Counted from the stretch's first letter, positions 3,174 to 44,376 are shown. The stretch is DNA of 64,000 nt from an uncultured Gammaproteobacteria bacterium (GCA_964612105.1 CAZTEU010000002.1:83697-147696), one strand, 5' to 3'. Numbers and translations are program-made. The notes: a model not told the origin generated them from the letters alone.

Positions 3174-3972
3174 ACAACTATTGAGTAGCTCCCCTATTGA
3201 CTCTTTGGATGCGGAATTACTCATTGCAAATATACTCGCGAAAACACGCGAGTTTATAGTTTCACACCCAGAGTTAGTTGTTGGTTTTTTTGATAGATTA
3301 AAATATTATAGAGCTGTTTCAAAAAGAAAGAACAATACTCCTATTGCATACCTACTGGGATACAAGGAGTTTTATGGACTAGATTTTATTGTAAACAAAA
3401 ATACTCTCGTACCAAGACCAGAAACTGAATTGCTTGTTGAGGAAGCACTGAAGCATATTACAAACGCAGATGTTCTTATAGATATAGGTACTGGTAGCGG
3501 CTGTATCCCTATCTCTATACTCAAAAACACAAAAAACAATATTAACACTGTTGCGGTAGATATATCCCAATCTGCAATTAATGTTGCAAGGAAAAATGCA
3601 AAAAAGCATGGAGTAAATATAGAATTCTTGCGAGGTAGTCTACTGACCCCAATAAAGAAAGAGATCTTACTGGGTAAGAAAGTAGTAATTACAGCCAATC
3701 TCCCATATCTTACAGAATCACAATATAATAATGAGATGTCCATAAGAAAAGAGCCAAAGGATGCACTTGTTGCAGAGAAAAAAGGACTTGCCTTATATAT
3801 GGAATTAGTTGATCAGATAAAGGATATAGACAGTAAAATTATAGCTATTTTTGAGATAGATCCAAGCCAGGAAAGTCTATTGAAGAGCTATATTAAACAT
3901 AAGTTGGGTATAGAGGACATAAAAACAGTTGAAGATCTTGCTGGCCATACAAGATTGGTGATATTTGGCTAA
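3142..3972 (+). CDS. prmC: release-factor glutamine N5-methyltransferase PrmC/HemK
   Basis: SAM-MTase motifs ([10 protein letters not shown]) and NPPY-type motif (TANLPYL); operon position after prfA. Confidence 0.85.
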
Positions 3973-4015
3973 AAAAGCATTGAAACTTGACAAATAAGCC
4001 AATTTATGATATTGT
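3965..4015 (+). promoter_or_regulatory. promoter module: GGCTAAAAAAGC element + TTGACA-N17-TATTGT
   Basis: ttGGCTAAAAAAGC at 3965-3979; TTGACA 3987-3992; 17-bp spacer; TATTGT 4010-4015. Same architecture recurs at 10.7, 16.9, 39.1 and 44.3 kb. Confidence 0.45.
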
Positions 4016-4032
4016 CCTTAGTCTCTCATATG

Positions 4033-4074
4033 GTTAGTGGCGCATGTCTATAAGCGTAGACATGCCCCACTAAC
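4033..4074 (+). promoter_or_regulatory. 18-bp stem hairpin (1 mismatch, loop taagcg) in the 5' leader of the island-0 gene
   Basis: gttagtggcgcatgtcta / tagacatgccccactaac seen directly; lies between the predicted TSS (~4022) and the RBS GGAGGT at ~4114. Confidence 0.5.
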
Positions 4075-4125
4075 GATGATGAGAACCCGCCAAACGAGTC
4101 ATATCTCGTAGGCACGGAGGTCAAC

Positions 4126-4650
4126 ATGGCTACCAAGAATGGAGTCCCTGATAGCAAGACTGAGGTCCTGTGGTTCAGGACTGGAGACCCAGAAAAGAAA
4201 GGTCTTATACTGCTTGGAAACTTGAAGTTGCTTGTCAACTTCGAGCCAGATGAGCCGGTGGTACCAGCCTGGTTTGGAAGCGCCGAACGTATACACCAAC
4301 TTATAACTCAGCTCAGAGGGGCTGGTGTAAAGGTTGAGACGTGCGCTCTGAAGACGTTCCTGAAAAGAACGAACTCAACCAAAATCAATCTCCGCATCCC
4401 TGACAAGAACACCATCTACTGCTACACAGTGCTCAGAAGTATGGTGAATGACATCAAACGTCATGCGGATAGAATCCGCATTCTCAACGATAACTTGTCA
4501 GAAGAAACGCTTTTGGAGCGAGCTCTAACAAGTTGGCTTTCCGAATGTTCTGGAATTGAGTTCTCCCACCTCGAAAGAGTTTGGAATGCATCTCCAGCTG
4601 AAGTACGTCGTGCGCTCGGACCAACAGCCAAAAACATGTTCAAGAGTTGA
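4126..4650 (+). CDS. hypothetical protein on a GC-richer (~48%) insert; no recognisable domain
   Basis: 174-aa ORF with canonical SD (GGAGGTcaacATG), unlike neighbouring host genes; composition differs from flanks. Confidence 0.5.
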   Translation: MATKNGVPDSKTEVLWFRTGDPEKKGLILLGNLKLLVNFEPDEPVVPAWFGSAERIHQLITQLRGAGVKVETCALKTFLKRTNSTKINLRIPDKNTIYCYTVLRSMVNDIKRHADRIRILNDNLSEETLLERALTSWLSECSGIEFSHLERVWNASPAEVRRALGPTAKNMFKS

Positions 4651-4751
4651 TCAGATTGCTCACATGCTGAGCGAAAAGATCACGGACAACCTGCGGGAGC
4701 TTCGCGCCCCCGCTCGTCCACCTGATAATAAAACTTGTTTTCAGATGGATA

Positions 4752-4782
4752 TAAAAAACTCCCATTAGGGAGTTTTTTGTTT
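4752..4782. terminator. bidirectional Rho-independent terminator
   Basis: aaaaaaCTCCCattaGGGAGttttttg lies between convergent genes 4126..4650(+) and 4781..5842(-). Confidence 0.6.
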
Positions 4783-5842
4783 ACTTATATTCCACTTCCC
4801 CTCTTGCATTTATCACCTCTATCCATATCTTTCCTGGCTTGATTGGAATTTCTTCACCTTCGCTGTTCAGCCATTTTGTTTTTTGTTCTCGTCCAATCTT
4901 CATCCAAGTTCCGTCTGCTCTGTGTCCATCACGGAATACTTGCACAGGACCTGCTCCCTGTGTCTGAATATGCAATCTACCAATTGCATCTACAACAGTG
5001 GAGGTTACGTGTTGGACAATTATAGTATCTGCAACAATTGGTCTCAAATCTTTGTCTACATGACGCACTCCACCTTGGTAACGGTCATACTGCAAGGTGC
5101 TTGTGTTAAATTTCCAGTTAGCCTGATACGTTTCCCCTAAAAACGTGACTGTAATATCTTCTGTGCAACCATCCTCACACGCATCCATTTCATTGTACGC
5201 CCATGATTCGGTTGTTGTTGTACCTCTACCCTCACCATAATCTTCCCATGCTTTATTCCAATGATCTTCGGAAGTATATACATTATGAGGAGCATACCTG
5301 TCTTTGCTTCTCCAATAATACCAACCTCTATAGAATTCGTTTAAATCAAAAAGGTCTATTTGTTTAATCTTTTCGAGCGCTTCCGGTGAGCCACCTACAT
5401 GCATATACATTGGATCATTATATTCGCTGACCCAGTCTAAGTAGTAAGGACGAGCACTGCGTACAGGCCCTACTTTTTTTACCTCAGCATCTTTTGGAAA
5501 GAGTAATAGGAATCTGGAATAATTAGCTTCTACCGGTGCCTCATATACAACAGAAGCATCTACAAGCCCAGACTGAGGGCGTGCATCTGGATGGTTTTCT
5601 ACCATAATAGCTACTACATTAGAAACAGTCTCATCTTCATTGTCTACACATTCTCCATTAAGAGTTTTGCGGAAATCACACTTAATTTTACTCTTTCCAT
5701 CAAAAAAATCTGTGACGAAAGAACCGTCACGAACAGGTTGTGTTATAAACTGATACCCCAGCCAAGCAATCAGACCAAATGCTACAAAAAAAACCACAAC
5801 AGCAAGGGAGTATACATATTTTGATTGTTGTTTCTTGTTCAT
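4781..5842 (-). CDS. membrane-anchored DUF3048 (YerB-like) family protein
   Basis: N-terminal TM anchor; VVAIMVENHPDARPQSGLVDASVVYEAPVEANYSRFLLLF resembles the DUF3048 N-domain signature. Confidence 0.6.
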   Translation of the reverse strand: MNKKQQSKYVYSLAVVVFFVAFGLIAWLGYQFITQPVRDGSFVTDFFDGKSKIKCDFRKTLNGECVDNEDETVSNVVAIMVENHPDARPQSGLVDASVVYEAPVEANYSRFLLLFPKDAEVKKVGPVRSARPYYLDWVSEYNDPMYMHVGGSPEALEKIKQIDLFDLNEFYRGWYYWRSKDRYAPHNVYTSEDHWNKAWEDYGEGRGTTTTESWAYNEMDACEDGCTEDITVTFLGETYQANWKFNTSTLQYDRYQGGVRHVDKDLRPIVADTIIVQHVTSTVVDAIGRLHIQTQGAGPVQVFRDGHRADGTWMKIGREQKTKWLNSEGEEIPIKPGKIWIEVINARGEVEYK

Positions 5843-5901
5843 AGGCTATATTGTATCGTAAAAACACAAATTAAAAAACCCCACATACGTGGGGCTTTAT
5901 T

Positions 5902-6606
5902 TTATTTACTGTCTTCTTTCTTTTCCTCAGCAGGTTTTTCTTCTTCTTTAGCTCCATCCTTTGCTTCTTCACCCTCTTCACCTTCTTTCTTCTCTCCATC
6001 CACTTCCACATCCTCCACACTAGGTGCTTCTGCTTCTTCCATTGCCTTAAGTTGCTCCTCTGTAAGAGGTGCTACTACTTTAGCAATTAATGTTGTTGGG
6101 TCATCTGTTACAGTTAATCCTGCAGGAAGTTTAAGATCACCAATAGAAATTGTATTCTCAAAAGTCTCTAGAACTGAAAGATCCACTGTGATGTTAGAAA
6201 CCAAGTCTTTTGGAAGACAGCGAACATTAACCTCACGGAGAGTTGTTTGTAATGTTCCACCAAGAGTTTTAACTGCAGCAGGCTCACCTTCAAACTCAAG
6301 TGATATTGTCGCAGACATTTCCTCACCCATTTTAATTTGTCTCAAATCTACGTGAGTAATAGTATCTTTTACTACATCATACTGTATATCCTGTATCAAC
6401 ATTTTTATTGGTTCACCACCATCAACAGAAACGTCAATCATGTTTGATCGCCCTGCTTCATCGTTTAATCTTTCAAATGTATTGTAATCCATCTCAATTG
6501 AAACAGAGTCTAGTTCTGGTCCATAAAGTACTGCTGGAATTTTTCCTTCAGCACGTACAGCTTCTGGTTTATTTGTTCTTTTCTGAACAGCAAGTGAAAA
6601 TGTCAT
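5902..6606 (-). CDS. rplY: 50S ribosomal protein L25 / general stress protein Ctc, with acidic/Lys-rich C-terminal tail
   Basis: N-terminal L25 fold signature (KIPAVLYGPE...), length 234 aa with E/K-rich extension. Confidence 0.85.
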   Translation of the reverse strand: MTFSLAVQKRTNKPEAVRAEGKIPAVLYGPELDSVSIEMDYNTFERLNDEAGRSNMIDVSVDGGEPIKMLIQDIQYDVVKDTITHVDLRQIKMGEEMSATISLEFEGEPAAVKTLGGTLQTTLREVNVRCLPKDLVSNITVDLSVLETFENTISIGDLKLPAGLTVTDDPTTLIAKVVAPLTEEQLKAMEEAEAPSVEDVEVDGEKKEGEEGEEAKDGAKEEEKPAEEKKEDSK

Positions 6607-6607
6607 A

Positions 6608-7036
6608 TTATTTACTGAGTAAGTGACTTAATTTCTTAGAGTGAATATTGACGGCGTTATGAAAAGATAGCACGTCATCCTCACTTATTGGTTCTTTTTC
6701 ATAAAATGTAACAACATCATCTGCAGATAGGTCTGTAAATAGTCCTACAGAACTCACACCCATCTGTGATATTGTTACAATGTTTAGAATCTTACTATGA
6801 CAACTTACACACGTTATGTGAACAAGGTGCACTCCATGCTCCTCGAAAAGAACATCCACACTTTGTTCCGAGTATGATTTACCACACATCGGGCATTCAC
6901 GCACCTGAGCTACTCCACCTTGTAAGCGGTCAAAGAAAGAGCTATTTGTTTTTTTTGTTGACCTCATATTTCTTAATGGCCAAGTGGCCAAAATTCTATC
7001 ATAGATAATAATAATCGTCAAGTCTCCTACATACAT
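6608..7036 (-). CDS. hypothetical zinc-ribbon protein; likely true start at the internal Met (~6967)
   Basis: CPMCG...CVSCHS Cys pairs; no family recognised. Confidence 0.35.
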   Translation of the reverse strand: MYVGDLTIIIIYDRILATWPLRNMRSTKKTNSSFFDRLQGGVAQVRECPMCGKSYSEQSVDVLFEEHGVHLVHITCVSCHSKILNIVTISQMGVSSVGLFTDLSADDVVTFYEKEPISEDDVLSFHNAVNIHSKKLSHLLSK

Positions 7037-7115: not shown

Positions 7116-7124
7116 TCACCTGTT

Positions 7125-7433
7125 ATGTTTAATTTTTTCAATATGAAAACAAAGGAGGGGAACCTAAACAAGAAGCTCGACGAGGTTCTTGAGATTGTTC
7201 ATTTTATTAAAGACAACGCTGCTACAAAAGTAGAATTGAATGAGCTAAGGGTAGAGCTCAAAGAAGAAATAGGTGTTGTACGAGATGATCTGCAGGGTGT
7301 TAAAAGTGATCTGCAAAAAGTGAAAAACGAGATGCTAGATCACGTAGATGGTTTTATTAAACTCTACAAGAATCAAGAGTCTGAGAATGCAGCGCTTGGA
7401 ATGCGAATGCTTCGTCTGGAAAGTTCTAGATAA
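7125..7433 (+). CDS. hypothetical coiled-coil protein
   Basis: 102-aa ORF, heptad-like ELNELRVELKEEIGVVRDDLQGVKSDLQKVKNEM; followed by a terminator. Confidence 0.45.
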   Translation: MFNFFNMKTKEGNLNKKLDEVLEIVHFIKDNAATKVELNELRVELKEEIGVVRDDLQGVKSDLQKVKNEMLDHVDGFIKLYKNQESENAALGMRMLRLESSR

Positions 7434-7450: not shown

Positions 7451-7483
7451 AACACCCAGTATTTACTGGGTAGTTTTTTATTT
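7451..7483 (+). terminator. Rho-independent terminator
   Basis: aCCCAGTAtttACTGGGTag followed by ttttttatttcc. Confidence 0.6.
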
Positions 7484-7638
7484 CCACCGCTGACAACAGC
7501 CAGTCAAGACGTATCGCGGGGAGAGAGTGTAAGTACAAGTACTCACAGACCGTGATATGTTTTGGGTCTGGCTGATGCCAAGGGTGGTGGTTATTATAAT
7601 CCTCACTCAACCCTTTTGTAAAGATTGAGAATGGGATG

Positions 7639-7712
7639 CCGGAATCGTTTTATCGATTCCGGCTTAGCCCTCCTAATTTTCAAAGAACATAGTGATAACG
7701 CGCAGTCATCAC
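7639..7712. repeat. island-I repeat element copy 1: perfect 9-bp-stem palindrome CCGGAATCG-ttttat-CGATTCCGG + conserved 3' flank (cctcctaattttcaaagaacat...gataacgcgcagtcatcac)
   Basis: Direct repeat of 9047-9121 (about 85% identity over ~75 bp); ends 29 bp from the stop of the minus-strand gene 7741..8835. Confidence 0.6.
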
Positions 7713-7740
7713 TTTCTGGAACCGCGAGAGGGTGCTGAGA

Positions 7741-8835
7741 CTAGCACGCCTCGGAGTACACGCCGTTGAGAGTGTCCAGCAACACCTGCATGGTGTTGTT
7801 GTCGATCACGCCCAGCGTACGAGCGCTCTTGATCGTGCACTCGACCAACTCGTGCACATCCTCCCACCGGTGCGGTCGGTGAAGCCCCATCTCCGTGGCC
7901 AGCGCGTTGTGCTCGTAGCGACGCAGATTGGCAATCTCATTGATCTGCGCACGGAGCGGGTTGGCCCACCGGTCGTACATCGCCTGGAACTGCAGGTTGA
8001 ACACCCGCGCCTCGTCCACCTCGAACGCGATGTTCGAGCGGAGATTCCAGTAGAACTCCTCGGTGGTCTCGAAGCTACGATAGTCGTTGCCAACGAAGCG
8101 TCGGGCGATCCCCCGCAGCTTGGAGAAGCTGGAGTTGGGGTGACACCGGCGGATGTCGGTGAACACGGCCCAGAGGTTGCGCGCCTTGCGCAGGTTCTCT
8201 TCCTCATGGAGACGCTGGGCCTTGGCCAACGCCTCGGCATCGGCCTTCTTCTTCTGGATGACCGCGACGTACAGTGCTGACTTGGAGACGTAGGTCTCCG
8301 GGCTGTCGATGCCGTTCGCCTTGGCGAACTGGTTCGCATCGTAGCGGAGCCAATTCTTGCGCTCCGTCACCGTCCAGCGACGCTGGGTATCTACGACCAC
8401 CTGAGCCATGTCGATCCACAGCCAGTTGGCGTGGCTACGCAGTGCGTAGCCGACGCCCTTGCCGTTGCGGGTCATCTTGGCGATGATCCCCGTGATGAGA
8501 CGCTTAGCCTCGGAAAGATCCGCATCCAGGATGGATGCGTTGTGCCGGAGAACCTCCGGCACACCCTTGCCCACGTTGAGGAGATCGCTGATCTCCCCCT
8601 CGACGAGATGGCGCGCCTCGGAGAGGTTGATCCCCATCCGACAGGCGCGCTTCATCTGCCCGCCCGTGAGCTCGGTGCCCTCGATCAGTGCCGTCTCGAT
8701 ACCGTCGAGTTCGGCCTTGACCAGCTCCTCACGGAGGTCGGCCACAGCATCGGCACCGCCGAGCTTCTTGGTGATCACGGCGTCCGGGGACTTCCCCGCA
8801 CGCAACATCTTCTTCACCTTCTTGCGAATGCTCAT
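7741..8835 (-). CDS. hypothetical protein, GC-rich island I gene A; no recognisable domain
   Basis: ~60% GC, GC3-rich codons; start set at MSIRKKVKK, preceded by GGAGGG 5 nt upstream. The longer ORF-track start lacks an RBS. Confidence 0.55.
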   Translation of the reverse strand: MSIRKKVKKMLRAGKSPDAVITKKLGGADAVADLREELVKAELDGIETALIEGTELTGGQMKRACRMGINLSEARHLVEGEISDLLNVGKGVPEVLRHNASILDADLSEAKRLITGIIAKMTRNGKGVGYALRSHANWLWIDMAQVVVDTQRRWTVTERKNWLRYDANQFAKANGIDSPETYVSKSALYVAVIQKKKADAEALAKAQRLHEEENLRKARNLWAVFTDIRRCHPNSSFSKLRGIARRFVGNDYRSFETTEEFYWNLRSNIAFEVDEARVFNLQFQAMYDRWANPLRAQINEIANLRRYEHNALATEMGLHRPHRWEDVHELVECTIKSARTLGVIDNNTMQVLLDTLNGVYSEAC

Positions 8836-9046
8836 AACTCCCTCCTGTGGGAATAGTACGTGGTGTTGCCAAACACCTGTCCTTTTCATCCGTCAATGGA
8901 TGACCACCAGCGCGAGCAGCGCCGATAGAGACTTCAATTGTATAGAACTGCATAGGTCGTTGGCACGACCGCAGAGGAGCAAACACTCGCCCTCACTGCC
9001 CCCCGCACCCACCTGTTATGATAGGTACGAGAAACATTGTAGGACC

Positions 9047-9121
9047 CCGGAATCGTTTTATCGATTCCGGGTTTCCCTCCTAGTTTTCAAAGAACATTTC
9101 CGAGTAACGCATGGTCACTAC
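9047..9121. repeat. island-I repeat element copy 2 (same palindrome CCGGAATCG-ttttat-CGATTCCGG + conserved flank)
   Basis: Ends 4 bp from the stop of the minus-strand gene 9125..10234. Confidence 0.6.
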
Positions 9122-9124
9122 AGA

Positions 9125-10234
9125 TCACTTCTTGAGACAGGCGCCAGCACCAGTGCAGACCTCATTAGACCCGCAGTCTTTGTTGGTCTGACATTCATAG
9201 CACCAGTACACGGCACGAGGCTTCGTGGCCAGGAGCTTTCCATCCTCGGACTCGACGGCGACGCCCGAACCACAGTAGGGCTTCTCCGAGGGACAACCGA
9301 CCTCTATCGACTTGTCCGATGTGACCGCCGTGCATTGCTGACAGAGTCCGTAGCTCCCGTTGTGCATAATGCAATACTCGCCCCATGACGAGCCCTTGCA
9401 GTCCAAATCAGTCTCGCAAAGACCACTGTTGATGCACGACTTGTCCTGCTCGTGCACACACCCCTTCTTGGGGAGACAGTAGTCGAACGTGCAGAACTTG
9501 CCATCGTCACAGTCGTAGTTGGACTTGCAGACTTCGACGTTCTTGCAATTGCCGGACTTCTTGTCGCACGAGTCAATGGTGTTGGGGTTGCTGTCGTCGC
9601 AGTCCTTGGTACCATCCGACTGGCATTTTTGCTTGAAGAAGTTGCAGAACTCCATCGTGCAGACATTGCCGTCGTCACACGGCAACTTGATGCCTTTCTC
9701 CTGCAGTTCACCAATGCACTTTCCACCAAAGCAGAAGGAGACGTTGGTGCAGAGGTTGCCGTCGTCACAGCTGTCTCCGTCAACCATGGACGCGAAGTTT
9801 TGACAGCCACTGGCTTCGTCACAGGAGTCGGCGGTGCACTCGTTGTTGTCGTGACAATCGACCTGCGAGTGAACACACTCATTGTTGTCGCAGGAGTCGA
9901 TGGTGCAGGAGTTGTAATCCTCGCACTCCTCGTTGGTCTTGCACTCGACCGACGGCTCAATCTCCACCTCGCCTTCTTTCGTCGGCGTGGCGGAAACCGG
10001 AGTCTCCACCGGAACCTCGACCATCTCTTTCTCGATGATGACCGTCTCGACCTCCACCTCCACGGTCTCCGTGTTGGTGATGGTTTTGGTCTCGCCCTCG
10101 ACGATCACGACCTGCGCCGAACTGTCATCGCCAACGCCAGTGTAGTCACTGGTGCAGGCAACGGAATTCAGGATGCCGAGGATGAACGCCAGCGCGAACA
10201 GTTTGCCCAAGTGGGCCTTGATCAGATTCAACAT
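9125..10234 (-). CDS. secreted lipoprotein with Cys-rich repeats (C-T-x-D-x-C / CDDGN motifs, Myxococcus-type cysteine-rich repeat-like)
   Basis: Signal peptide + lipobox (ILNSVAC); repeated ...NxCTxDSCD... and CDDGNxCT units, many Cys. Start at second Met (AAGGAG RBS 6 nt upstream). GC-rich. Confidence 0.6.
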   Translation of the reverse strand: MLNLIKAHLGKLFALAFILGILNSVACTSDYTGVGDDSSAQVVIVEGETKTITNTETVEVEVETVIIEKEMVEVPVETPVSATPTKEGEVEIEPSVECKTNEECEDYNSCTIDSCDNNECVHSQVDCHDNNECTADSCDEASGCQNFASMVDGDSCDDGNLCTNVSFCFGGKCIGELQEKGIKLPCDDGNVCTMEFCNFFKQKCQSDGTKDCDDSNPNTIDSCDKKSGNCKNVEVCKSNYDCDDGKFCTFDYCLPKKGCVHEQDKSCINSGLCETDLDCKGSSWGEYCIMHNGSYGLCQQCTAVTSDKSIEVGCPSEKPYCGSGVAVESEDGKLLATKPRAVYWCYECQTNKDCGSNEVCTGAGACLKK

Positions 10235-10332
10235 GACTAACTCCTTCACCCGACTTGCGGGTGTTCGGTTTGTGGCGCAACTGCCATTCGGAATCCGTTT
10301 GGACGCCTAGGGTTGTCAGTCGCACCACGCGC

Positions 10333-10380
10333 TTCCTTCCCATTGCATATCCAGATTGTGGACATACAGTGGGAAGGAAG
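10333..10380. repeat. 11-bp perfect inverted repeat CTTCCTTCCCA-N26-TGGGAAGGAAG at the GC/AT transition on the right edge of island I
   Basis: Seen directly; lies 100-150 bp upstream of the island gene 9125..10234 on its coding strand. Confidence 0.4.
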
Positions 10381-10493
10381 AAGTAGATTGTAAAGATTGT
10401 TATCTATTGAGTTAGACTCAACAGGCAAGAGCGTAGGAGTGTTGGGCAGGTAATATATTTTCTCCCTCAGCCTATCGCTCTTTTCTGTTGGGT

Positions 10494-10522
10494 CAAACAA
10501 AAACCCTCTCGGGCGAGAGGGG
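10494..10522 (-). terminator. Rho-independent terminator (minus strand)
   Basis: Minus strand CCCTCTCGCCCGAGAGGG followed by TTTTTGTTTG. Confidence 0.55.
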
Positions 10523-10633
10523 TTGCGGGTTTTGGGCAGATAAAATCTACCTATATAACTCGACATTCCTCTCTCCAGAAATGTTTGGTCAATTGTAATG
10601 GGCCTATTACCAAGGCATTCTCTTTATTTTTAA
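10494..10633 (-). ncRNA. candidate ~140-nt small RNA from promoter to terminator (unclassified); alternatively a leader of island I transcripts
   Basis: Bounded by the promoter at 10640-10669 and the terminator at 10494-10522. The ORF 10246..10566 crossing the terminator is not credible. Confidence 0.25.
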
Positions 10634-10639
10634 CAACAA

Positions 10640-10742
10640 AGTATATCATAAAAAGAGGGTTTTGTCAAGACCCTAGCTCAATTAAAGTAATAAAAAATGG
10701 CTCAACTAAGCCAAATTATGTAATGTGATGGCTAATATTAGC
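10640..10742 (-). promoter_or_regulatory. promoter module (minus strand): palindromes GGCTAATATTAGCC and GGCTCAACTAAGCC upstream of TTGACA-N17-TATACT
   Basis: Minus strand TTGACAaaaccctctttttatgaTATACT; palindromic sites at 10699-10712 and 10729-10742. Confidence 0.5.
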
Positions 10743-10748
10743 CAAAAA

Positions 10749-15081: not shown

Positions 15082-15492
15082 ATGGGGGGATTTTTTTATA
15101 GAACTAAAGCGAATAGGTGCTGTAAAACCTCATTTACAGAAGCTATGGATTTTGGTTTAGCTAAATTACCAAAAAGCGCAAAGAAAACTCGGAGGCGTGC
15201 TTTTGTGCGTTCGATGTATTTTTCAAAGCAGAAAATATTTTTAGATCTTTTTTGGAGGCATTTATATCAGAAAAATATCAGTAATAGGAGGAGGAGAATT
15301 CGTCTGTTGGAAGCTGGTTTGGAATTGATTAGAAAATCAAAATTAGAACCTTCAAAAATACAAAATCCAAATAATTCTAAAGAATATTTTTATAAGTTTT
15401 TAGGAAAAACAAAGGACGGATATCCATTCTGTGTGCAAATTAAAGAAGATAAAAATAAACAAAAATGGCTTATGTCAATATTTCCAAAATAA
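15082..15492 (+). CDS. small basic hypothetical protein, paralog of 45407..45823 (shared KIFLD(L/I)FWRHLxQKN ... FP core)
   Basis: ~40% identity to the 138-aa protein at 45.4 kb; strong SD (AAAGGAGGGGtATG) unlike host genes; starts 22 nt after the gyrB stop. Confidence 0.5.
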   Translation: MGGFFYRTKANRCCKTSFTEAMDFGLAKLPKSAKKTRRRAFVRSMYFSKQKIFLDLFWRHLYQKNISNRRRRIRLLEAGLELIRKSKLEPSKIQNPNNSKEYFYKFLGKTKDGYPFCVQIKEDKNKQKWLMSIFPK

Positions 15493-15589: not shown

Positions 15590-15617
15590 AAAAAACCCCG
15601 TTTGGGGATTTTTTATT
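15590..15617. terminator. bidirectional Rho-independent terminator
   Basis: aaaaaaCCCCGtttGGGGattttttatt. Confidence 0.6.
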
Positions 15618-15762
15618 CTCTCAAGACTCCTAGTGTTAAGAAACTTGAGGGATTGGACTTTTGATGAGAGTCCAAACTCCGAGCGAGGCGTAGTGTGGTT
15701 TGTCGTCTAGCAACATCACCACAAACTTCGTCTGTTCGGCCTCGCTTGGTTGGAGCGAGGTC

Positions 15763-16710
15763 TTAGAGCATTGGATCAGTCGCCTTCTTGGGACGATCGA
15801 TCCAGTCACTCATGCTGATCACACGACCAGCCTGAGCGGACTTGACACCCTTGGTCTTCGTCAGGTGCTTGGCGATGAATTTCAGAATCTCATCCTTGGT
15901 GAAGGTGCTGTCACCGAACGGGGCAAAGACCGAGGTCTTCTTCCCGATGGTGAACTTGGCGTCCTTCTCGTACTCGAGGTACAGGGCAAAGATGGGATCC
16001 TTTTTGGTCTCGTAGGTGTTGAAGACCCCGGGCGTGTTCTCCATGAAGCGGTCCGTCCAACCACCGTCATCCGACGGGATTGGTGGTCTGAAATGGACAA
16101 CGAGCCTATGATCACGGACGACAGCCAGCCAGTGGTGCGTGCCGGTCTTCTTGGAGACCATCTTGCCGACACCAGCCGGTCGGATGTAGTTGGACCAATA
16201 AGGGAAGTCCCGCACGAAACGCTCTTCCAGACTCGGCATGACCTCACAGAGGATTCTCTCCTCCTGCTCGCACCAGAACTGGGTCGCCCACAGCAGGTTC
16301 TTGTAGGTTCCCAACTCGCGCTTGCAGACGCCGAGCTTGTGATCAGCATCGCGGAGATCCTTCAGGTCTCTCTGCTGAGCCTCTTTGTCCTTCTTCTGTT
16401 TCTCTTCCGCCTGAGCAACAGGCCAACAGCTTGCCAGGAAGATACCAACTTCCCGCTTGAGCTCGGTGGCGTCCTTCTTGACCACCTTGTCACGGCGGAA
16501 GCTCGCGTACGAACCACGGTACTCGCTGATCAGCGAATACGCCCTGTTCTTCCGCTGAGTATCACCAGACTTGTCCGCACACTCGACCGCCTCTTTGAGG
16601 AGGTTGTCGACCACGCTGTACGTGACCTCTTCCTCTTCCCTCTCAGTCTGGCAACCCAGGACGGACATGCTGGTCGCAACGAGCACGAGACACACAAACA
16701 AATTCTTCAT
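15763..16710 (-). CDS. lipoprotein of unknown function (GC-rich island II)
   Basis: Start at MKNLFVCLVLVATSMSVLGCQ (signal peptide + lipobox) with GGGAG RBS; ~58% GC. The antisense ORF 15700..16737 is judged spurious. Confidence 0.55.
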   Translation of the reverse strand: MKNLFVCLVLVATSMSVLGCQTEREEEEVTYSVVDNLLKEAVECADKSGDTQRKNRAYSLISEYRGSYASFRRDKVVKKDATELKREVGIFLASCWPVAQAEEKQKKDKEAQQRDLKDLRDADHKLGVCKRELGTYKNLLWATQFWCEQEERILCEVMPSLEERFVRDFPYWSNYIRPAGVGKMVSKKTGTHHWLAVVRDHRLVVHFRPPIPSDDGGWTDRFMENTPGVFNTYETKKDPIFALYLEYEKDAKFTIGKKTSVFAPFGDSTFTKDEILKFIAKHLTKTKGVKSAQAGRVISMSDWIDRPKKATDPML

Positions 16711-16816
16711 CTCAATCTCCCGCTCCCGTTGCATTAGGGAGCTCAGTTTCGATACGCGTAGGACCTCCCCACGCACACCAGATAAAGCTCCATAAATACA
16801 CTATTATGGACGTACA

Positions 16817-16845
16817 ACTATAGCATATTTATAGTGTTTTGTCAA
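16817..16845 (-). promoter_or_regulatory. promoter (minus strand) TTGACA-N17-TATAGT driving the island II lipoprotein gene
   Basis: RC of 16817-16845 reads TTGACAaaacactataaatatgcTATAGT; ~100-nt leader. Confidence 0.45.
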
Positions 16846-16852
16846 GACCTTA

Positions 16853-16877
16853 TGGCTAATTTTTGGCTAAAATAAGC
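16853..16877. promoter_or_regulatory. two adjacent GGCTAA-type palindromic elements (GGCTAATTTTTGGCTAAAATAAGCT) between divergent promoters
   Basis: Seen directly; matches elements at 3965, 10699/10729, 39062 and 44305. Confidence 0.4.
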
Positions 16878-16906
16878 TTTTTTTATTACTTTTTCCATGC
16901 CCAAAC

Positions 16907-16935
16907 TTGACAAATGACACAAAAAATGATAAATT
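16907..16935 (+). promoter_or_regulatory. promoter TTGACA-N17-TAAATT
   Basis: TTGACA 16907-16912; TAAATT 16930-16935. Confidence 0.5.
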
Positions 16936-16941
16936 ATGCCC

Positions 16942-17152
16942 GCTGGTTGGCACGGACACACCGGCGTGCGTTTTTCGTACGTGTCCCACAGCAGGAAGTT
17001 GCCGAACCAAATTGTGACGACCAGAGCCTGAAAGGTGAGCCTGAACACCACATGCGGATTATCCTTCGGGAGAAGCCGCGTGAAGGACATGCCCAGTCCG
17101 TATGATCTTGACTTCTTGTCAATTTTGTACGGGCTGGGCTATTGATTTTTTA
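16942..17152 (+). ncRNA. candidate ~210-nt GC-rich structured RNA (unclassified) with own promoter and terminator-like hairpin
   Basis: GC-rich non-coding segment between the promoter at 16907 and the hairpin CCCAGTCCGTA...TACGGGCTGGG + T-run (17092-17152). Only overlapping 62-63-aa ORFs on both strands. No tRNA T-loop, RNase P or SRP consensus recognised. Confidence 0.3.
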
Positions 17153-38925: not shown

Positions 38926-39061
38926 ATTTTTTTGCTTAACCCAGTAATGTTTACTGAGCCTCTCACCAAGAGTAAATAGGTGAGAAATGAATAATTTATT
39001 AGCCGAAATACTATAACATAAGTATAATTATATTGCAAGAGTGCGTAGTGCGATATTTTTT

Positions 39062-39122
39062 GGCTTATTTTAGCTGTTTTTTAGCTCTCAGGGTTGACAA
39101 TAGGCATAAAATGTGTTATTGT
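39062..39122 (+). promoter_or_regulatory. promoter module: GGCTTATTTTAGCT element + TTGACA-N17-TATTGT
   Basis: Element 39062-39075; TTGACA 39094-39099; TATTGT 39117-39122; ~230-nt leader to the island III gene. Confidence 0.45.
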
Positions 39123-39231
39123 CCAGTGTCGTTCTTTACACAATTTGTTGCTAAATATAGCAGGCAAATCCACCAAGAATGTGATTTTCTCATATTTTTT
39201 ATGGATTTGCTTGTAAAAAGGCGGTCAAGTG

Positions 39232-39243
39232 TGCCATGTGGCA
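39232..39243. promoter_or_regulatory. perfect 12-bp palindrome TGCCATGTGGCA in the island III leader
   Basis: Seen directly; candidate operator. A 6-bp hairpin GGCCTGtaatctaatCAGGCC (39320-39340) lies just upstream of the RBS. Confidence 0.3.
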
Positions 39244-39348
39244 TGCGTATCTGTGAAAAAAGTCGACCTCCTCGCCCTACGGTGGGCCATGGGGGTATTC
39301 GTGCCAACATACGGCCTGTAATCTAATCAGGCCACGGGAGAAGAAGAT

Positions 39349-40269
39349 ATGGGTAGCAACGGAAGAAACTCGGGACAGATCCTGTTCATGGACTGGAATT
39401 TCACTGAAGACAAGTCCGAGAGTCAGCGCTGGGAGCGACTCCTCCAGAGCTGCGACTACATCGGTCGCTGGAAGGAAGGTGTCACACCCGACCACTTCGG
39501 CGGGAAGACCCTCGCGAAGATCAGCAACCTGTTCGTTGAGGCGATGAAGATTGTCGCACCCAAACTGGAGTACAAAACCTCACGGCCGGCGCTCTACAAG
39601 ATCCTGTACCGTCACCCGAGACGGGTCGTCATCCGCGTGGACAAGAGCCTCTCAATTCCGCGACGTGTGGAGAATGGTCAGGATGTGTTCGGGTCGGACT
39701 GCGGTCTGAACATGGCCACGCGCCTGAAGCTCGTGAACGGCAATTTCAACAAGTCGCAGGGTATCCTGCGGACTGTGCTGAACAACGTCGCCAACGAGAC
39801 CACGACCAACGTCTCCGAAGCCTGCATCGACATGCTGTGGACCATCTCGCGCCTGGTCAATGGGCTGGGCATCCGCACCGACAAGGGCATGCAGTACGAG
39901 GGAGAGCTCATCTCGCCATGGCACATCGTTGTCGAGCGAGGGACCATGTCTCCCAAGAAGATGCTCGAACTCGAGCAGCAGAATGCCATCGAAGAGGCCG
40001 CTGCGAAGAAGGGGGCGGACCTGACTCAGTCTGAGAAGCATTCGGCGCTCTGCCGATACAAGGCCAAAGAGCGCGATGCTGGTCATGTGCGCCACGCCAA
40101 GATCCTCAAAGACTGGGATCTCGACGACTGGAAGGCGGAAGCGCGAGACTGCGGTGTGCGGTACGAAAATGATGTCGAGCTCGACACCCTCTCCACTGCG
40201 GTTCGCGCCAACGTGGAAGCCCGTGTCGGCAAGGCCTGGAAGCGCCTGAAGAAGTCCACGTCCAAGTAG
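39349..40269 (+). CDS. hypothetical protein (GC-rich island III); no recognisable domain
   Basis: 306 aa, ~58% GC, RBS GGGAGAAG upstream. Confidence 0.5.
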   Translation: MGSNGRNSGQILFMDWNFTEDKSESQRWERLLQSCDYIGRWKEGVTPDHFGGKTLAKISNLFVEAMKIVAPKLEYKTSRPALYKILYRHPRRVVIRVDKSLSIPRRVENGQDVFGSDCGLNMATRLKLVNGNFNKSQGILRTVLNNVANETTTNVSEACIDMLWTISRLVNGLGIRTDKGMQYEGELISPWHIVVERGTMSPKKMLELEQQNAIEEAAAKKGADLTQSEKHSALCRYKAKERDAGHVRHAKILKDWDLDDWKAEARDCGVRYENDVELDTLSTAVRANVEARVGKAWKRLKKSTSK

Positions 40270-40432
40270 TACCAACGTCTGCAACCACGCAACGTCGAGG
40301 TACATAGCAACAATCTCGTAGAGTCTACAACTCAAAAGTAGAAGCTACACAATCCCCGCCCGTTCATAAAATAAGGAGAGAACGGCGGGCACACATTGTG
40401 CATGAACACTCGTGCAAAGTGTGTACACAACA

Positions 40433-40458
40433 ATCCCGTAAAAGCGGGATTTTTGTAT
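40433..40458 (+). terminator. Rho-independent terminator after island III
   Basis: ATCCCGtaaaagCGGGAT + ttttgtat. Confidence 0.55.
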
Positions 40459-40528
40459 ACATTACCCCTTGCTTTATATAGCAAAATCAGCTATAATAAA
40501 CATGCTTTTAAGCGCCATTTTTATTATC

Positions 40529-41150
40529 TCAATATATGCATCTTTCTTGGCTAGGTAACACCGGAATGAAAATCCAGGTTAAACCATTTGATAAAGACAT
40601 TACAATTGTAATAGATCCATACAAGCACAAAACAGGAACATCTCCGCGCAGTCTTGCCCCAGATATTGCTCTATTTACAAGAACACAAAAAGATAGTGTT
40701 ACTCTTTCTGGAAGCCCTTTTATACTAGATGCTCCCGGTGAGATAGAAACTGGTGGAGTACTTGTTACTTCAGCACAAGGACACACGCAAGAATCTACAG
40801 TAGTGCGTGTAGATGCAGAACATATGAGTGTTGGACATCTAGGTCTTATTCATAAACAACCTACAGACAAACAGCTAGAAGTGTTGTCCGGGGTAGATAT
40901 ACTGTGCATACCCGTAGGTGGAAAAGACGTATACGAACCAGAACAAGCATCTCGTGCAATTAGTGCTATAGAACCGAGAGTTGTAATACCTATTGCATAC
41001 AAATCAGACAATGATCCAAAGGCAGGAACAGTTGAATCTTTCCTAAAGGAAATAGGACTGAAGGCTGACAAACCAGAAAAAAAGGTTATCATTAAAAAGA
41101 AAGATCTTCCTCAGGAAGACATGATGGTAATTGTTTTGTCTAAAGAGTAA
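40529..41150 (+). CDS. MBL-fold metal-dependent hydrolase (Lactamase_B_3 / UPF0173-like)
   Basis: MxxSWLGNTG...IDPY start and overall pattern typical of the small beta-lactamase-fold hydrolases. Confidence 0.6.
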
Positions 41151-41159
41151 ACAATCAAT

Positions 41160-41735
41160 ATGCCTGCAAAAAAACACACAAAAAAAACCAAAGACGACAG
41201 CAAAAAGAAGAAGAGGAAGAAGAAAGCCCCAACAAAGAAAAGAAAAACTAGCAAGAAATCAGCTGTAAAGAAAGATATAGCAAAAGCTGTTGAGCAGATT
41301 CCTGCAATTATTACAGAAGAAATCCGCGAAGAAGAGGTTGAGGTGAAAAAGCCAACCCTAAAGTCCAGCCGGAAGACCCATGCACATCATTTCATGTATG
41401 AACATCATCATGTAATGCCTAAGAAAAAATTATTATGGTTTGGGGTAATCTGTTTGACTGTTGTAATGATTGCAATGTGGGCGTTAAACACAAGAGTGTT
41501 TCTTTATCAAATAACTCAACAAGGGGAAGCGCTCAAATCACCAACTGTCTTACTTAATGTAAAAGATGATTTTCAGAAAGTACTAGATGCTACTAAAAGA
41601 GAAGAGGCAAAAAGAGAGGCAACTAAAGCACAAGTAGAAAAACAAATTAAGACTGCAGAATCAGAAATTAAATTAGAACAAGGACTCAAGTCCGTAATAA
41701 AAGAAAAGACGCAACCAAAAGAACTAGATGAATAA
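41160..41735 (+). CDS. hypothetical Lys-rich protein with one TM helix
   Basis: K-rich N-terminus, single TM (LLWFGVICLTVVMIAMWAL). Confidence 0.4.
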   Translation: MPAKKHTKKTKDDSKKKKRKKKAPTKKRKTSKKSAVKKDIAKAVEQIPAIITEEIREEEVEVKKPTLKSSRKTHAHHFMYEHHHVMPKKKLLWFGVICLTVVMIAMWALNTRVFLYQITQQGEALKSPTVLLNVKDDFQKVLDATKREEAKREATKAQVEKQIKTAESEIKLEQGLKSVIKEKTQPKELDE

Positions 41736-41737
41736 TT

Positions 41738-44260
41738 ATGCCAAAAAAGAAACCCGCTTCAAGCAAAAAAACCACTCCTAAAAAAGGGGGGAAGACAATG
41801 GAGGCTGTTCCTGAGGAAAAATCAATAGGAAAACTAGAGCCAATATCACTGGTCGACGAAATGCAGACCTCGTATTTAGATTACGCAATGAGTGTTATTG
41901 TTTCACGTGCCTTACCAGATGTTCGTGATGGGCTAAAGCCTGTTCACAGAAGAATCCTTTACGCAATGTGGAAGATAGGATTAAAACACAACAGTAAATT
42001 TAGAAAATCTGCCCACGTTGTTGGTGAGGTGATGGCAAAATACCATCCTCATGGTGATGCAGCAATATACGACTCCATGGTTCGTATGGCACAGGACTTT
42101 AGCATGAGGGAAATGCTTGTGCACGGACAAGGTAACTTCGGGTCCATGGATGGAGATAGAGCAGCTGCAATGCGTTATACCGAGGCAAAACTAAAATCTA
42201 TTGCTGAGGAATTACTATTTGATATAGAAAAAGAAACCGTTAACTTCTCACCAACATACGACTCAGCAACAAAAGAACCAAGCGTACTTCCAAGTAAACT
42301 ACCCAACCTGCTACTAAACGGAAGCATGGGTATTGCTGTTGGAATGGCTACAAATATTCCCCCTCATAATCTTGGAGAACTTTGTGATGGGGTTGTACAT
42401 TTAATAGAACACCCAAAAGCCACAGTTGAAGACTTAAACAAATTTATAAAAGGACCAGATTTTCCAACAGGTGGAATTATATATAATAAAGCAGACATAC
42501 AGACTGCGTATGCAACAGGTCGTGGTGGAATGGTTGTGCGTGCAAAGACAGACATACAGGAAAGTAAGGCGGGGCGTTTTCAGATAGTAGTAACTGAGGT
42601 GCCTTATCAGGTTAACAAAGCAAACCTATTGGAAAAGATAGCTAAGCTAGTACAAGAGAAAAAACTTGAAGGAATAAAAGACCTAAGAGATGAATCAAAT
42701 AAAGATGGTGTTCGTGTTGTTGTAGAGCTTAAAAAAGATGCCTACCCAAGAAAAGTGCTTAATAGGCTGTTTAAAATGACCCAACTACAGACTACCTTCC
42801 ACATGAACATGATTGCTCTTGTAGATGGCATACAACCACGTGTTCTCAATCTCAAGTCAGTCCTCAAGGAATACATTAAACATCGCCAAGAAGTTGTAAG
42901 ACGTAGAACTCAATTTGATTTGGATAAAGCAAAAGAAAGAGCTCATATTTTAGAGGGTCTTAAAAAGGCCTTAGATAAAATAGATCAAGTTATCAATACA
43001 ATTAGAAAATCAAAAGATAAAGAAATGGCAAAAGCTAATTTGATGAAAAAATTCAAGTTTACAGATAGGCAGACAGTTGCAATCCTAGACATGCGCCTAC
43101 AGCAACTTGCCAACTTGGAAAGACAGAAGATTATTGATGAATTAAAAGAAAAGAAAGCTCTTATAAAAGAGCTTATGGCACTTCTCGCAAGTGAGGCAAG
43201 AATAAAGACTGTAATTAAAAAGGAAGTAAAAGCAATAAACGATAAGTACTCTTCAGACCGCCGTACTCATATCGTTCCTCATGGAGTAAAAGACTTCAGC
43301 ATGGAAGACTTGGTACCAAACGAACCTACAATTATCATGGCAACTCAAGATGGATATATAAAAAGAATGCCTGTAGATACATTTAAGACACAGGGTCGTG
43401 GTGGTAAAGGTGTGATTGGTCTTACCACAAAAGAGGAGGATGTTGTAGAACACCTAATCTCTACAAACACTCACGACAACATACTTTTCTTCACAACAAG
43501 AGGACGAGTATTCCAAATGCATGCATACGATATTCCTCAAGCTTCTAGAACAGCAAAAGGGCAGGCATTAGTAAACTTCCTACAACTTGCTCCAAATGAA
43601 AAGGTTTCATCTATCCTGTCTTTCGATGATGTAAGTAAATACAAATTTCTAGTAATGGTTACAAACAAAGGAACAATAAAACGTACGAAGCTTGAAGATT
43701 TCAAGAACGTGCGTAAGTCTGGTCTTATTGCACTAAAACTAAAAACAGATGATATGTTAGAGTGGGTACGTCCATCCACTGGAAAAGACGAAATTGTACT
43801 AACAACTTCTCTTGGACAAGCAATTCGTTTCAAAGAATCTGGAGTGCGTGCAATGGGAAGAACCGCTGCTGGAGTTAGAGGAATAAAACTAAAATCACAA
43901 GACTCCATCGTTGGTATGGGAATTGCAGAACCAGAACTAGCAAAGAAAAAAGTACTAGAGCTGTTGGTTGTATCAGAAAACGGTCTTGGAAAGAGAACAA
44001 ATCTTAATGAGTATAAAGTACAAGGACGCGGTGGAAGTGGAATAAAAACAATGGCTGTAACAGCAAAGACTGGTAAATTAATTAGTGCTAGAGTTATTAA
44101 TAAGACAGATGAACAAGATCTAATGCTTATCTCCACAGGTGGGCAGGTGGTAAGAACTCCACTAAAGACAGTTTCCACTCTTGGAAGAGCTACACAAGGT
44201 GTGCGAATAATGAGATTTAAGAAAGACGGAGATACAGTTGTGAGTATGGCGTTGTTATAA
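41738..44260 (+). CDS. gyrA: DNA gyrase subunit A
   Basis: N-terminal ...[29 protein letters not shown]... with the active-site Tyr region; C-terminal beta-pinwheel repeats. Confidence 0.9.
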
Positions 44261-44279
44261 AAAACACTAAATAGCAATA

Positions 44280-44306
44280 AAAACACCATGATTATGGTGT
44301 TTTTTG
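44280..44306 (+). terminator. Rho-independent terminator after gyrA
   Basis: ACACCATgattATGGTGT + tttttt. Confidence 0.65.
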
Positions 44307-44376
44307 CTAAAATAAGCTATTTTCTTGCGTATTTCTACCCCTAAGGCTTGACAAAACCACAAAAGCGTACTATACT
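44306..44376 (+). promoter_or_regulatory. promoter module: GCTAAAATAAGCT element + TTGACA-N17-TATACT
   Basis: Element 44306-44318; TTGACA 44348-44353; TATACT 44371-44376. Confidence 0.5.

Follow-up and report, generated by a model that had tools for sequence, protein, structure and literature searches.

The question raised by this locus is what role is played by a short palindromic DNA word, GGCT followed by six A/T positions and AGCC, which is found upstream of several strong promoters. An initial annotation of the window (the whole stretch of 64,000 nucleotides analysed here) had described a near-palindrome recurring at such promoters, and all sequences quoted there are present at the sites given for them. 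The source organism is Candidatus Magasanikbacteria (Patescibacteria, ABY1). Within its A/T-rich frame the element has the consensus T4-5 K GCT W A W W T W AGC M A4-5, i.e. GGCT-N6-AGCC. We consider it probable, at roughly 60%, that the element serves Magasanikbacteria and related ABY1 Patescibacteria as a cis-regulatory operator, bound by a putative dimeric DNA-binding protein.

The element is a real, non-random, promoter-proximal inverted repeat, and all copies in the window lie in promoter regions. It has dyad symmetry with conserved half-sites, GGCTAATATTAGCC being a perfect palindrome, and three genomes have identical GGCT/AGCC ends but differ in the A/T core. The earlier description of a dimeric-operator-like palindrome is borne out by the inverted repeat, the closeness to promoters, the retention at orthologous positions and the fixed ends. 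GCTWAWWTWAGC was found 4 times in the window against 0.08 expected, the exact 12-mer GCTAAAATAAGC 3 times against 0.01, and GCT-W6-AGC 6 times against 0.34. A chance by-product of A/T-rich intergenic composition, named in the initial annotation as a possible refutation, would fit the modest enrichment of the relaxed 14-mer with 2 mismatches (10 matches versus 2.8 expected, 10 being reached in 1 of 100 shuffles), but the over-representation of the stricter patterns and the conservation of the element at orthologous sites of diverged genomes rule this out for practical purposes. An intrinsic terminator, which needs a G+C-rich stem and then a T run (with a preceding A run if bidirectional), was also considered and rejected, as the order of the element is T run, palindrome, A run, with a stem of 4-6 bp that is mostly A/T; the real terminators of the window have the opposite layout.

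For the association with promoters we used the TTGACA-N16-18-TAnnnT promoters of the window (n=18), and a good copy was defined as one that differs from the 14-mer at no more than 2 positions and is located in the 125 bp upstream of the promoter. Good copies are present at five of the 18 promoters (10668-, 16845-, 16907+, 39094+ and 44348+), all five of which drive GC-rich units. The remaining 13 have at least 4 mismatches to the 14-mer and are thus cleanly separated from the five. With 6 of the 18 promoters taken as driving GC-rich units, the element is found at 5/6 promoters of GC-rich units versus 0/12 others (Fisher ~7e-4).

The individual sites are as follows, element copies being unstranded. 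Past ftsW there are two copies. The distal one, GGCTAATATTAGCC (10730-10743), is located 6 bp past the ftsW stop codon and is centred at about -103 relative to the promoter of island I, and the proximal one, GGCTCAACTAAGCC (10699-10712), which reads GGCTTAGTTGAGCC on the minus strand, is located 31 bp from it with its centre at about -72. This pair is conserved in the window and in two relatives (L210 and L211), where the distal copy, the GGCT/AGCC ends of the proximal copy and the sigma-70-type promoter TTGACA-N17-TATACT (10640-10668, minus strand) are kept. The promoter drives the island I leader, a conserved RNA of ~140 nt (10495-10634, minus strand) with a closing helix UUGYYGUU/AC.CGCAA and then an intrinsic terminator, upstream of variable GC-rich cargo; no Rfam match was found for this leader RNA. 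At island II, GGCTAAAATAAGCT (16865-16878) lies between two divergent promoters and is centred at about -61.5 relative to 16845(-) and about -70.5 relative to 16907(+). It is overlapped by a partial copy, GGCTAATTTTTGGC (16854-16867), in which GGCTAA recurs 11 bp upstream of the main copy. The minus-strand promoter TTGACA-N17-TATAGT (16817-16845) drives the lipoprotein gene of island II (15763-16776, minus strand), and the plus-strand promoter TTGACA-N17-TAAATT (16907-16935) a GC-rich non-coding transcript of ~215 nt (16938-17152).

Island III was said to be entered from a promoter carrying its own copy, and this holds for GGCTTATTTTAGCT (39062-39075) with respect to the plus-strand promoter TTGACA-N17-TATTGT (39094-39122), which drives the island and is separated from the copy by 19 bp. 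The copy is also 24 bp from a divergent rpsA promoter, read from the sequence as TTGCAA-N17-TATAGT (39010-39038, minus strand). AGCT recurs 11 bp downstream of this copy, and its orthologous position is kept in L053 and ~9 metagenome relatives. Two further motif-like palindromes were absent from the initial annotation: GCTAAATATAGC (39150-39161) in the AT-rich leader of island III, at about +25 from the start site, and GCTTTATATAGC (40471-40482) over the -35 and spacer of the Lactamase_B_3 promoter (TTGCTT 40469-40474, TATAAT 40492-40497). Immediately past the gyrA terminator, TGCTAAAATAAGCT (44305-44318) has its centre at about -71.5 from the plus-strand promoter TTGACA-N17-TATACT (44348-44376), which drives a structured GC-rich RNA of ~335 nt (44378-44712); the position is also filled in three relatives (L142, L204 and L118). 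The copy claimed at 3.97 kb is doubtful as a member. This shortened sequence, GGCTAAAAAAGC (3967-3978), extends over the stop codon of prmC, 8 bp upstream of the promoter of island 0, is one base short between its GC pairs and has no in-register match.

In most cases 18-35 bp separate the element from the -35 hexamer downstream of it, the centre being at about -60 to -76, and a second copy can sit about three helical turns further upstream; centres cluster near -61, -71 and -102. There is no strict phasing relative to the -35, since the Lactamase_B_3 group lies at about -76 and other sites range from -47 to -118, and some copies overlap the core promoter or fall in the leader. A rival reading that needs no dedicated regulator is intrinsic promoter architecture, in which an UP-element-like or intrinsically curved upstream sequence (T-tract, GC clamp, A/T core, GC clamp, A-tract) would be recognised by the alpha subunit of RNA polymerase or would act as DNA shape. 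Such a reading would account for the flanking T and A runs, for GC pairs spaced 10-11 bp apart with up to three repeats, for the strong consensus promoters downstream and for a 13-nt T-rich stretch, TTTTTTATTACTTT, common to two modules between element and -35. We regard it as unlikely, as most strong promoters lack the element, copies also occur in leaders and over core promoters, and the conserved positions are the G/C-containing ends and not the A/T tracts. Classical UP elements consist of A/T alone, occupy -40 to -60 and adjoin the -35 directly. A UP element proper was rejected on the conserved G/C, the range of centres and the copies in leaders.

It could also be proposed that the element is itself a core promoter with an extended -10 (TGnTAAAAT), firing in one or both directions. 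In Levybacteria and Roizmanbacteria loci a gap of 0-2 nt separates the end of the 18-mer from a start codon (rpmG in L106; L125), in Saccharibacteria one locus has a gap of 7 nt between the 18-mer and a tRNA, and the element abuts greA and a PBP gene in L098 and L114. Against this, a separate consensus -35/-10 is found 18-35 bp downstream in the window and at most ABY1 loci, many copies read GGCTAA and not TGCTAA, the variants GCTTAATTAAGC and GCTAAGCTTAGC have no -10-like hexamer, and the palindromic ends are the conserved positions. We therefore hold a core promoter to be very improbable.

The element is widespread in the ABY1 lineage, being intergenic at 20 of 21 ABY1 loci examined. Among genome matches to the 18-mer, 29/119 came from ABY1-like CPR genomes, a count that includes CPR-like-looking MAGs labelled Gammaproteobacteria; three MAGs so labelled have synteny or a TrmB-like gene in common with window-type loci. 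In ABY1 relatives the element precedes rpsO, nusA, greA, rpsA, relA/spoT, PBP1A and the Lactamase_B_3-gyrA operon, and also genes for a DnaJ-domain protein, an MFS transporter, CNNM and TrmB-like regulators. Upstream of Lactamase_B_3 it keeps a fixed 34-35 bp from the -35 in L053 and ~9 metagenome relatives, and orthologous units of a 3D-like protein and a tRNA carry it in one Magasanikbacteria and one Uhrbacteria genome (L114, L090). The element is scarce in relatives, with 9 exact degenerate sites in 625 kb and no extra copies in 139 kb of ABY1 loci, and the regulon may therefore be small or variable. The copies at 39.06, 44.3 and 10.7 kb are kept in relatives which have other cargo or none there, and are therefore part of the host backbone and not of the islands; the post-ftsW, rpsA/Lactamase_B_3 interval and post-gyrA sites are ancestral to this backbone. 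The conserved chromosomal slots hold non-homologous cargo with a GC3 of 0.75-0.99, compared with ~0.27 in host genes.

The initial annotation had considered that the module could belong to the machinery that captured the islands. In this reading the element would be a recombination or target site, or part of a mobile promoter module, by which GC-rich foreign genes were taken up. Non-homologous GC-rich cargo does adjoin the element in conserved slots, L212 has neither an island nor the element past ftsW, and a tyrosine recombinase gene, the nearest integrase, is located ~6 kb past the right-hand window edge. Island III lies between 15-nt direct repeats that resemble the motif, TTGCTAAATATAGCA and TTGCTTTATATAGCA, but it is the only island so bracketed, the far ends of the others having no copy, and no recombinase gene lies within or beside any slot. 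Ordinary single-copy host genes are preceded by the element in many genomes, and most GC-rich cassettes of relatives lack it. The flanks of the copies are unrelated except for one 13-nt stretch, and the module is therefore not a repeated mobile sequence. Capture by the element is thus quite unlikely.

Specificity for foreign cargo was the other part of the earlier proposal. All good copies in this genome are next to a GC-rich transcription unit, and the regulon here putatively comprises mainly accessory GC-rich units, namely secreted lipoproteins, ORFans and structured RNAs (~79 kb seen). Lineage-wide the specificity is not supported: in relatives the motif also precedes ordinary genes such as rpsO, nusA, greA and rpsA, and for this reason the element is not a special foreign-DNA tag. 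Nor is it found at every island entrance of the window, a GC-rich island at 50.5-55.1 kb, beyond the range covered by the initial annotation, having no copy at its entrance. The consensus promoters of most GC-rich cassettes in relatives lack it as well. Control by a single regulator is plausible. The target of a xenogeneic silencer is the foreign DNA itself, with its deviant and normally AT-rich composition. A silencer target was rejected, the element being located outside the GC-rich cargo, in AT-rich DNA that resembles the host's, and also before core host genes.

On the operator reading, a TrmB-like winged-helix regulator (PF01978) is the most likely candidate binder, since the motif is found just upstream of four genes of this type in relatives (L094, L107, L161 and L212; two of these four were retrieved via the motif). 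The element lies ~100-125 bp upstream of the start codon of these genes or in the leader, and in L212 a 28-bp perfect palindrome is found upstream. It is absent at four more distant TrmB-like paralogues in relatives (L166, L169, L170, L171), and the window with 15 kb of flanks has no TrmB-like gene. The CPR proteins are ~250 aa in length and do not reach the curated NCBIfam thresholds for TrmB, TrmBL1 and halobacterial TrmB; they have no PDB sequence match. A protein bound upstream would aid RNA polymerase, either in the way of a class I activator or as an architectural factor, while at overlapping or downstream sites it would repress, and the element before TrmB-like genes may be a signature of autoregulation. 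Element and promoters belong to the host backbone, with the downstream cargo having been exchanged in conserved chromosomal slots.

Among known systems, the integron platform (Pc promoter and attI) is similar in having a fixed host promoter, downstream of which related genomes carry variable genes, unrelated to one another and often ORFans, at one and the same chromosomal place. It differs in that here no integrase is found beside the platform and no attC-like sites at cassette ends, and the cassettes usually have their own promoter and terminator, with one cassette unit per slot. An integron-like or site-specific capture site was rejected, as motif-like repeats flank only island III and the slots have no recombinase.

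SlyA/RovA of the MarR family, with the consensus TTAGCAAGCTAA, are counter-silencers of horizontally acquired genes. As in the present case, a 12-bp A/T-rich palindrome is built from GCTAA and TTAGC words and is tied to acquired genes, but the half-sites are arranged TTAGC..GCTAA there and GCTAA..TTAGC here, the cargo is AT-rich there and GC-rich here, and no MarR gene was seen here. Class I activator sites of E. coli, e.g. those of CRP, are centred at -61.5, -71.5 and further turns. The element resembles them as a palindrome with flanking A/T tracts and centres near -61 and -71, a second copy being near -102, but its sequence differs and its spacing is not strictly helical (Lactamase_B_3 group at about -76). 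No CRP/FNR-family protein was identified in this analysis.

TrmB-family operators include TACT-N3-AGTA, TATCAC-N5-GTGATA and TACT-N7-8-GAGTA, and the known regulators combine palindromic operators, upstream activation, downstream repression and autoregulation (PMC4158304). Known TrmB regulons are in sugar metabolism. The sequence here, GGCT-N6-AGCC, is different, the host is a CPR bacterium with sigma-70-type promoters, and the targets are rpsA, the gyrA operon, nusA, greA, relA and accessory GC-rich genes instead of sugar metabolism. Sugar uptake and central carbon genes were not encountered among the targets seen, which are rpsA, rpsO, nusA, greA, relA/spoT, the gyrA operon, PBP1A, lipoproteins, ORFans and RNAs. 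In both cases, nevertheless, the site is an inverted repeat of short half-sites with a spacer, and the same type of site is found upstream of promoters as well as over or downstream of them. As with TrmB, the candidate regulator's gene may have its own site and the regulon would be broad; and in four relatives PF01978 proteins adjoin the element.

The element sequences quoted in the initial annotation were all found in the window where it had placed them. When two mismatches were allowed, the relaxed 14-mer form of the element gave 10 matches against 2.8 expected, which is a modest enrichment. The abundance of the core is far beyond chance: GCTWAWWTWAGC is found in 4 copies (0.08 expected), the exact 12-mer GCTAAAATAAGC in 3 copies (0.01 expected) and GCT-W6-AGC in 6 copies (0.34 expected).

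All 18 promoters of the type TTGACA-N16-18-TAnnnT in the window were used for the promoter comparison, and the best 14-mer match was scored up to 125 bp upstream of each. Five promoters, at 10668 (minus), 16845 (minus), 16907 (plus), 39094 (plus) and 44348 (plus), had a match with two mismatches or fewer; the remaining 13 had at least four. GC-rich transcription units lie downstream of all five, and a good copy is found at 5 of 6 promoters of GC-rich units versus 0 of the 12 other promoters. The copy at 3.97 kb is one base short and fails the in-register match. A copy at every island entrance, as previously proposed, is not what we find, as the GC-rich island at 50.5-55.1 kb is without one. 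This fifth island (50450-55100, minus strand, 50-55% GC) holds UPRTase-like, PNP_UDP_1 phosphorylase, AbiEi-like and unknown genes, and has no PADLOC match.

Two additional copies are present in the window: the island III leader has one at 39150, and the other, at 40471, overlaps the -35 and spacer of the promoter of Lactamase_B_3. At 39.06 kb the copy separates the promoter of island III from that of rpsA, which points the other way. Outside the window, another 15 kb of this genome adds only one copy, GCTAAGCTTAGC at position 965 of the flanking locus L001, which adjoins a GC-rich ORFan of 174 aa and a divergently oriented tRNA promoter.

The window belongs to a metagenomic scaffold of 390,833 bp, which JGI and Logan assemblies contain as well, and NusG homologues at 83-92% identity carry the name Candidatus Magasanikbacteria. 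The 18-mer form TTTTKGCTAAAATAAGCT was scanned in one genome per species, giving at least 119 loci. Of these, 20 are from ABY1-class Patescibacteria (Magasanik-, Uhr-, Falkow- and Kerfeldbacteria together with 'Patescibacteria group' records), and nine more are from MAGs labelled Gammaproteobacteria in which the motif has CPR-like contexts. These nine records (L017, L022, L032, L044, L047, L048, L081, L093 and L107) are probably mislabelled; L022 and L093 share ftsH-rpsA synteny with the window at 50-77% identity, and L107 has a TrmB-like gene adjoining the motif. Given their small share of the database, ABY1 and CPR-like genomes are in very large excess among the 18-mer loci. A phage origin of the element was rejected, with only 4 18-mer matches in IMG/VR. 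In three loci from Levybacteria, Roizmanbacteria and Saccharibacteria (L106 2791-2808, L125, L038), 0-7 nt separate the end of the 18-mer from a start codon or tRNA, and TGCTAAAAT is there probably the extended -10 of leaderless or short-leader transcripts.

The element is intergenic in 20 of 21 ABY1 loci. The genes served are rpsO, nusA, greA and genes for a DnaJ-domain protein, Lactamase_B_3, an MFS transporter, CNNM/CorC, PBP1A and a TrmB-family regulator; a 3D-like protein gene followed by a tRNA is served in two orders, and rpsA and a relA/spoT homologue joined the list with loci examined later. The proposed specificity for foreign cargo therefore fails lineage-wide, where ordinary genes are served; within this genome, however, the promoter counts show a real association.

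Comparison with relatives indicates that three of the window copies are ancestral host elements. The locus L053 is syntenic with the rpsA/Lactamase_B_3-gyrA region and carries the element 34 bp upstream of the Lactamase_B_3 -35, with an ordinary methyltransferase-like gene where the window has island III. Among 80 metagenome loci with Lactamase_B_3 orthologues, about nine closer relatives have variants followed by an A run, for example GCTTAAATTAGCC, GCTAATTTAAGCC, GCTAAAACAAGCC, GGCTAAGCTAAGCC and GGCTTATTCTAGCC, and in most of these the distance from the element end to the -35 is fixed at 34-35 bp. Between the A run and the -35, several relatives (L131, L135, L145, L150, L166 and L170) have a second conserved box, TATACMCAC; at the equivalent place on the rpsA side the window has TATCGCAC. 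Downstream of gyrA, the element is found after 46-96 bp in the window, in L142 (before rpsA) and in L204 (before relA/spoT). GC-rich palindromic repeat units, such as cccctctc..gagagggg followed by ggggtgagta, occur in several copies within these intergenic slots in L145, L169 and L161, after gyrA or near the element, and resemble REP or MITE elements.

The initial annotation had alternatively taken the module for part of the machinery that captured the islands. The sole point for this is a flanking repeat at island III, which is bracketed by the 15-nt direct repeats TTGCTAAATATAGCA (39148-39162) and TTGCTTTATATAGCA (40469-40483), 13/15 identical; both have the form of motif-like palindromes and may be operator copies or an insertion relic. 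We do not favour capture machinery. The only recombinase seen near the region is a tyrosine recombinase gene adjoining a HigB/HigA-like pair in the flank (L128 5321-6923), about 3-5 kb past position 64000. Copies spread as duplicated DNA were rejected as well, since cargo and leaders are without nucleotide similarity to each other or to the fetched loci, and the flanks of the copies are unrelated.

Orthologous copies agree throughout in their GGCT and AGCC ends and differ at the six A/T positions of the centre. The element has T runs before it and A runs after it, opposite to the order in a terminator, and half-site repeats at 10-11 bp are found in two window modules. The element is mostly centred between about -60 and -76, with second copies near -102. 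Elsewhere it is found on top of the core promoter (window 40471, L001 965) or within a leader (window 39150, L161, L194). A dimeric regulator would activate from upstream and repress from over or behind the promoter, and we read the element in this way because the upstream, overlapping and leader positions all fit. The symmetry, the conserved ends and the positions make one regulator acting through a dimeric operator the best explanation, with a probability of roughly 0.6 for a protein operator; this part of the earlier proposal is plausible, without its foreign-only target set. Strict helical phasing was suggestive at 12 of 16 sites and is broken by the Lactamase_B_3 group at about -76. A strain comparison for footprints was uninformative, as the available strains differ at only 1-5 positions in 20 kb.

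A candidate for the binding protein is suggested by TrmB-like winged-helix genes (PF01978), which have the element upstream in four loci: L094 (Falkowbacteria), L107, L161, with two copies in the leader of the gene, and L212, where a 28-bp perfect palindrome lies between divergent promoters. The motif played no part in obtaining L161 and L212. Four TrmB-like paralogues that are more distant are without the element. Characterised members of the TrmB family recognise palindromes, act as activators from upstream sites and as repressors from downstream ones, and regulate their own genes (PMC4158304). The TrmB-like proteins from CPR score below the curated family cut-offs, and the window has no TrmB-like gene; Pfam on about 55 window proteins gave no transcription factor except the weak AbiEi-like match in the motif-less island. 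We consider the TrmB-like protein a tentative candidate binder, with the odds somewhat against it. In L212 (16244-20094), from a close relative, the gene and its palindrome adjoin a block of GC3 0.99, and a copy of a dCMP deaminase gene stands on either side of the whole insert; at that place the window has only one deaminase gene and lacks the insert.

The island ORFs are genuine coding genes. Non-coding islands are ruled out by the strong codon periodicity of these ORFs, with a GC3 of 0.75-0.84 versus 0.24-0.29 in host genes of the window. A 382-aa island protein is an ORFan among 5.8 billion proteins, and a 306-aa one among 1.8 billion. The 374-aa Cys-repeat lipoprotein has named relatives mainly in Myxococcota, and the product of island II is a lipoprotein as well. 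Because of the GC3 deviation, the ORFans and the Myxococcota relatives, the cargo looks foreign, as had been assumed. PADLOC gave no defence-system match for nine cargo proteins.

The cargo regions are 4020-4750, 7480-10630, 15600-16800 and 39217-40440 in the window, 3000-4000 in L210, 1500-4000 in L211 and 16244-18095 in L212. GC3 reaches 0.92-0.99 in the relatives (about 0.27 in host genes), and lipoproteins and ORFans are common. The same four slots are occupied in related genomes by mutually non-homologous cargo genes.

After ftsW, the window, L210 and L211 have kept a module of two element copies about 30 bp apart, a promoter with CTTGACAAAA and an extended -10, and a leader (about 140-150 nt) in which a conserved closing helix is followed by a terminator. 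The host genes are 60-90% identical in these genomes. Behind the module, L210 has a 267-aa gene of GC3 0.92, and L211 a 62-68% GC block with faint similarity to island I. At the same place L212 has neither island nor element. In the window leader (10495-10634, minus strand) the closing helix is UUGYYGUU / AC.CGCAA; the box GGCCCATTACAAT and an intrinsic terminator are present too, with variable secreted-protein genes behind. Its layout is riboswitch-like or attenuator-like, covariation being weak with only three sequences available, and it had no Rfam match. The gyrB-secE and gyrA-ruvA slots hold different non-homologous GC-rich cassettes in different relatives, most with consensus promoters and no element. 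Since the control sites are conserved with differing cargo across relatives, the control regions are part of the backbone, and the cargo can be exchanged.

Two families of small genes accompany the slots. Paralogous basic proteins of 136 and 138 aa, 43% identical and without family match (15082-15492, plus; 45407-45823, minus), adjoin the gyrB-secE and gyrA-ruvA slots, respectively. A small coiled-coil gene (window 7125-7433, plus; L210 2279-2641; L211 8887-9114) is convergent to GC-rich cargo with a shared bidirectional terminator, and is found at ftsW in the window and L210 and at gyrB-secE in L211, as if it were a slot traveller or marker.

GC-rich non-coding transcripts on the plus strand at 44378-44712 and 16938-17152 each have their own promoter and terminator. 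Against shuffles, folding gave z = -7.5 and -4.1, respectively, and no Rfam family matched. In L118 the place after gyrA is taken by another structured RNA that differs from these, about 400 nt long, whose promoter is flanked by the element. No known RNA genes were detected in the window by Rfam (in gathering and in E-value mode) or ARAGORN, and near the element in 32 relatives' loci the only known RNAs were three tRNAs.

The reading that assumes least is that foreign genes are retained where they happen to have landed behind regulated promoters that the host already had, in a small number of permissive slots. A fuller scheme, which we hold to be unlikely, would have expression slots after ftsW and at gyrB-secE, rpsA-Lactamase_B_3 and gyrA-ruvA. 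The host would encode the operator pair and consensus promoter, and at ftsW also the riboswitch-like leader and terminator. High-GC foreign genes (GC3 0.75-0.99), many of them lipoproteins or ORFans without relatives in billions of proteins, would repeatedly be swapped in, and one TrmB-like regulator would then switch the whole accessory set together. If true, this would be a gene-capture-and-control arrangement without a recognisable integrase.

To our knowledge, almost nothing is known of transcriptional control in CPR bacteria, none of which is genetically tractable and few of which are cultured. We found no paper on this element, on a TrmB regulon in CPR or on GC-rich slot cargo or islands in Magasanikbacteria. 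The outcome is a well-defined lineage-wide element, probably an operator, together with a named candidate for its regulator and a first set of targets. Among these are genes for translation and transcription factors, the gyrase operon, a gene of the stringent response and accessory secreted proteins. The regulon can be put to a direct test with a purified protein and synthetic DNA. Furthermore, GC-rich islands in conserved slots behind host control regions pose a concrete question, namely by which route reduced symbionts gain new genes for their surface and place them under the regulation already there.

We know of no GGCT-N6-AGCC arrangement among CIRCE, LexA and similar boxes. Unlike those of TrmB, the targets of the element are not sugar genes. 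An operator with a regulon is a class already known; the more unusual feature is the architecture of the slots.
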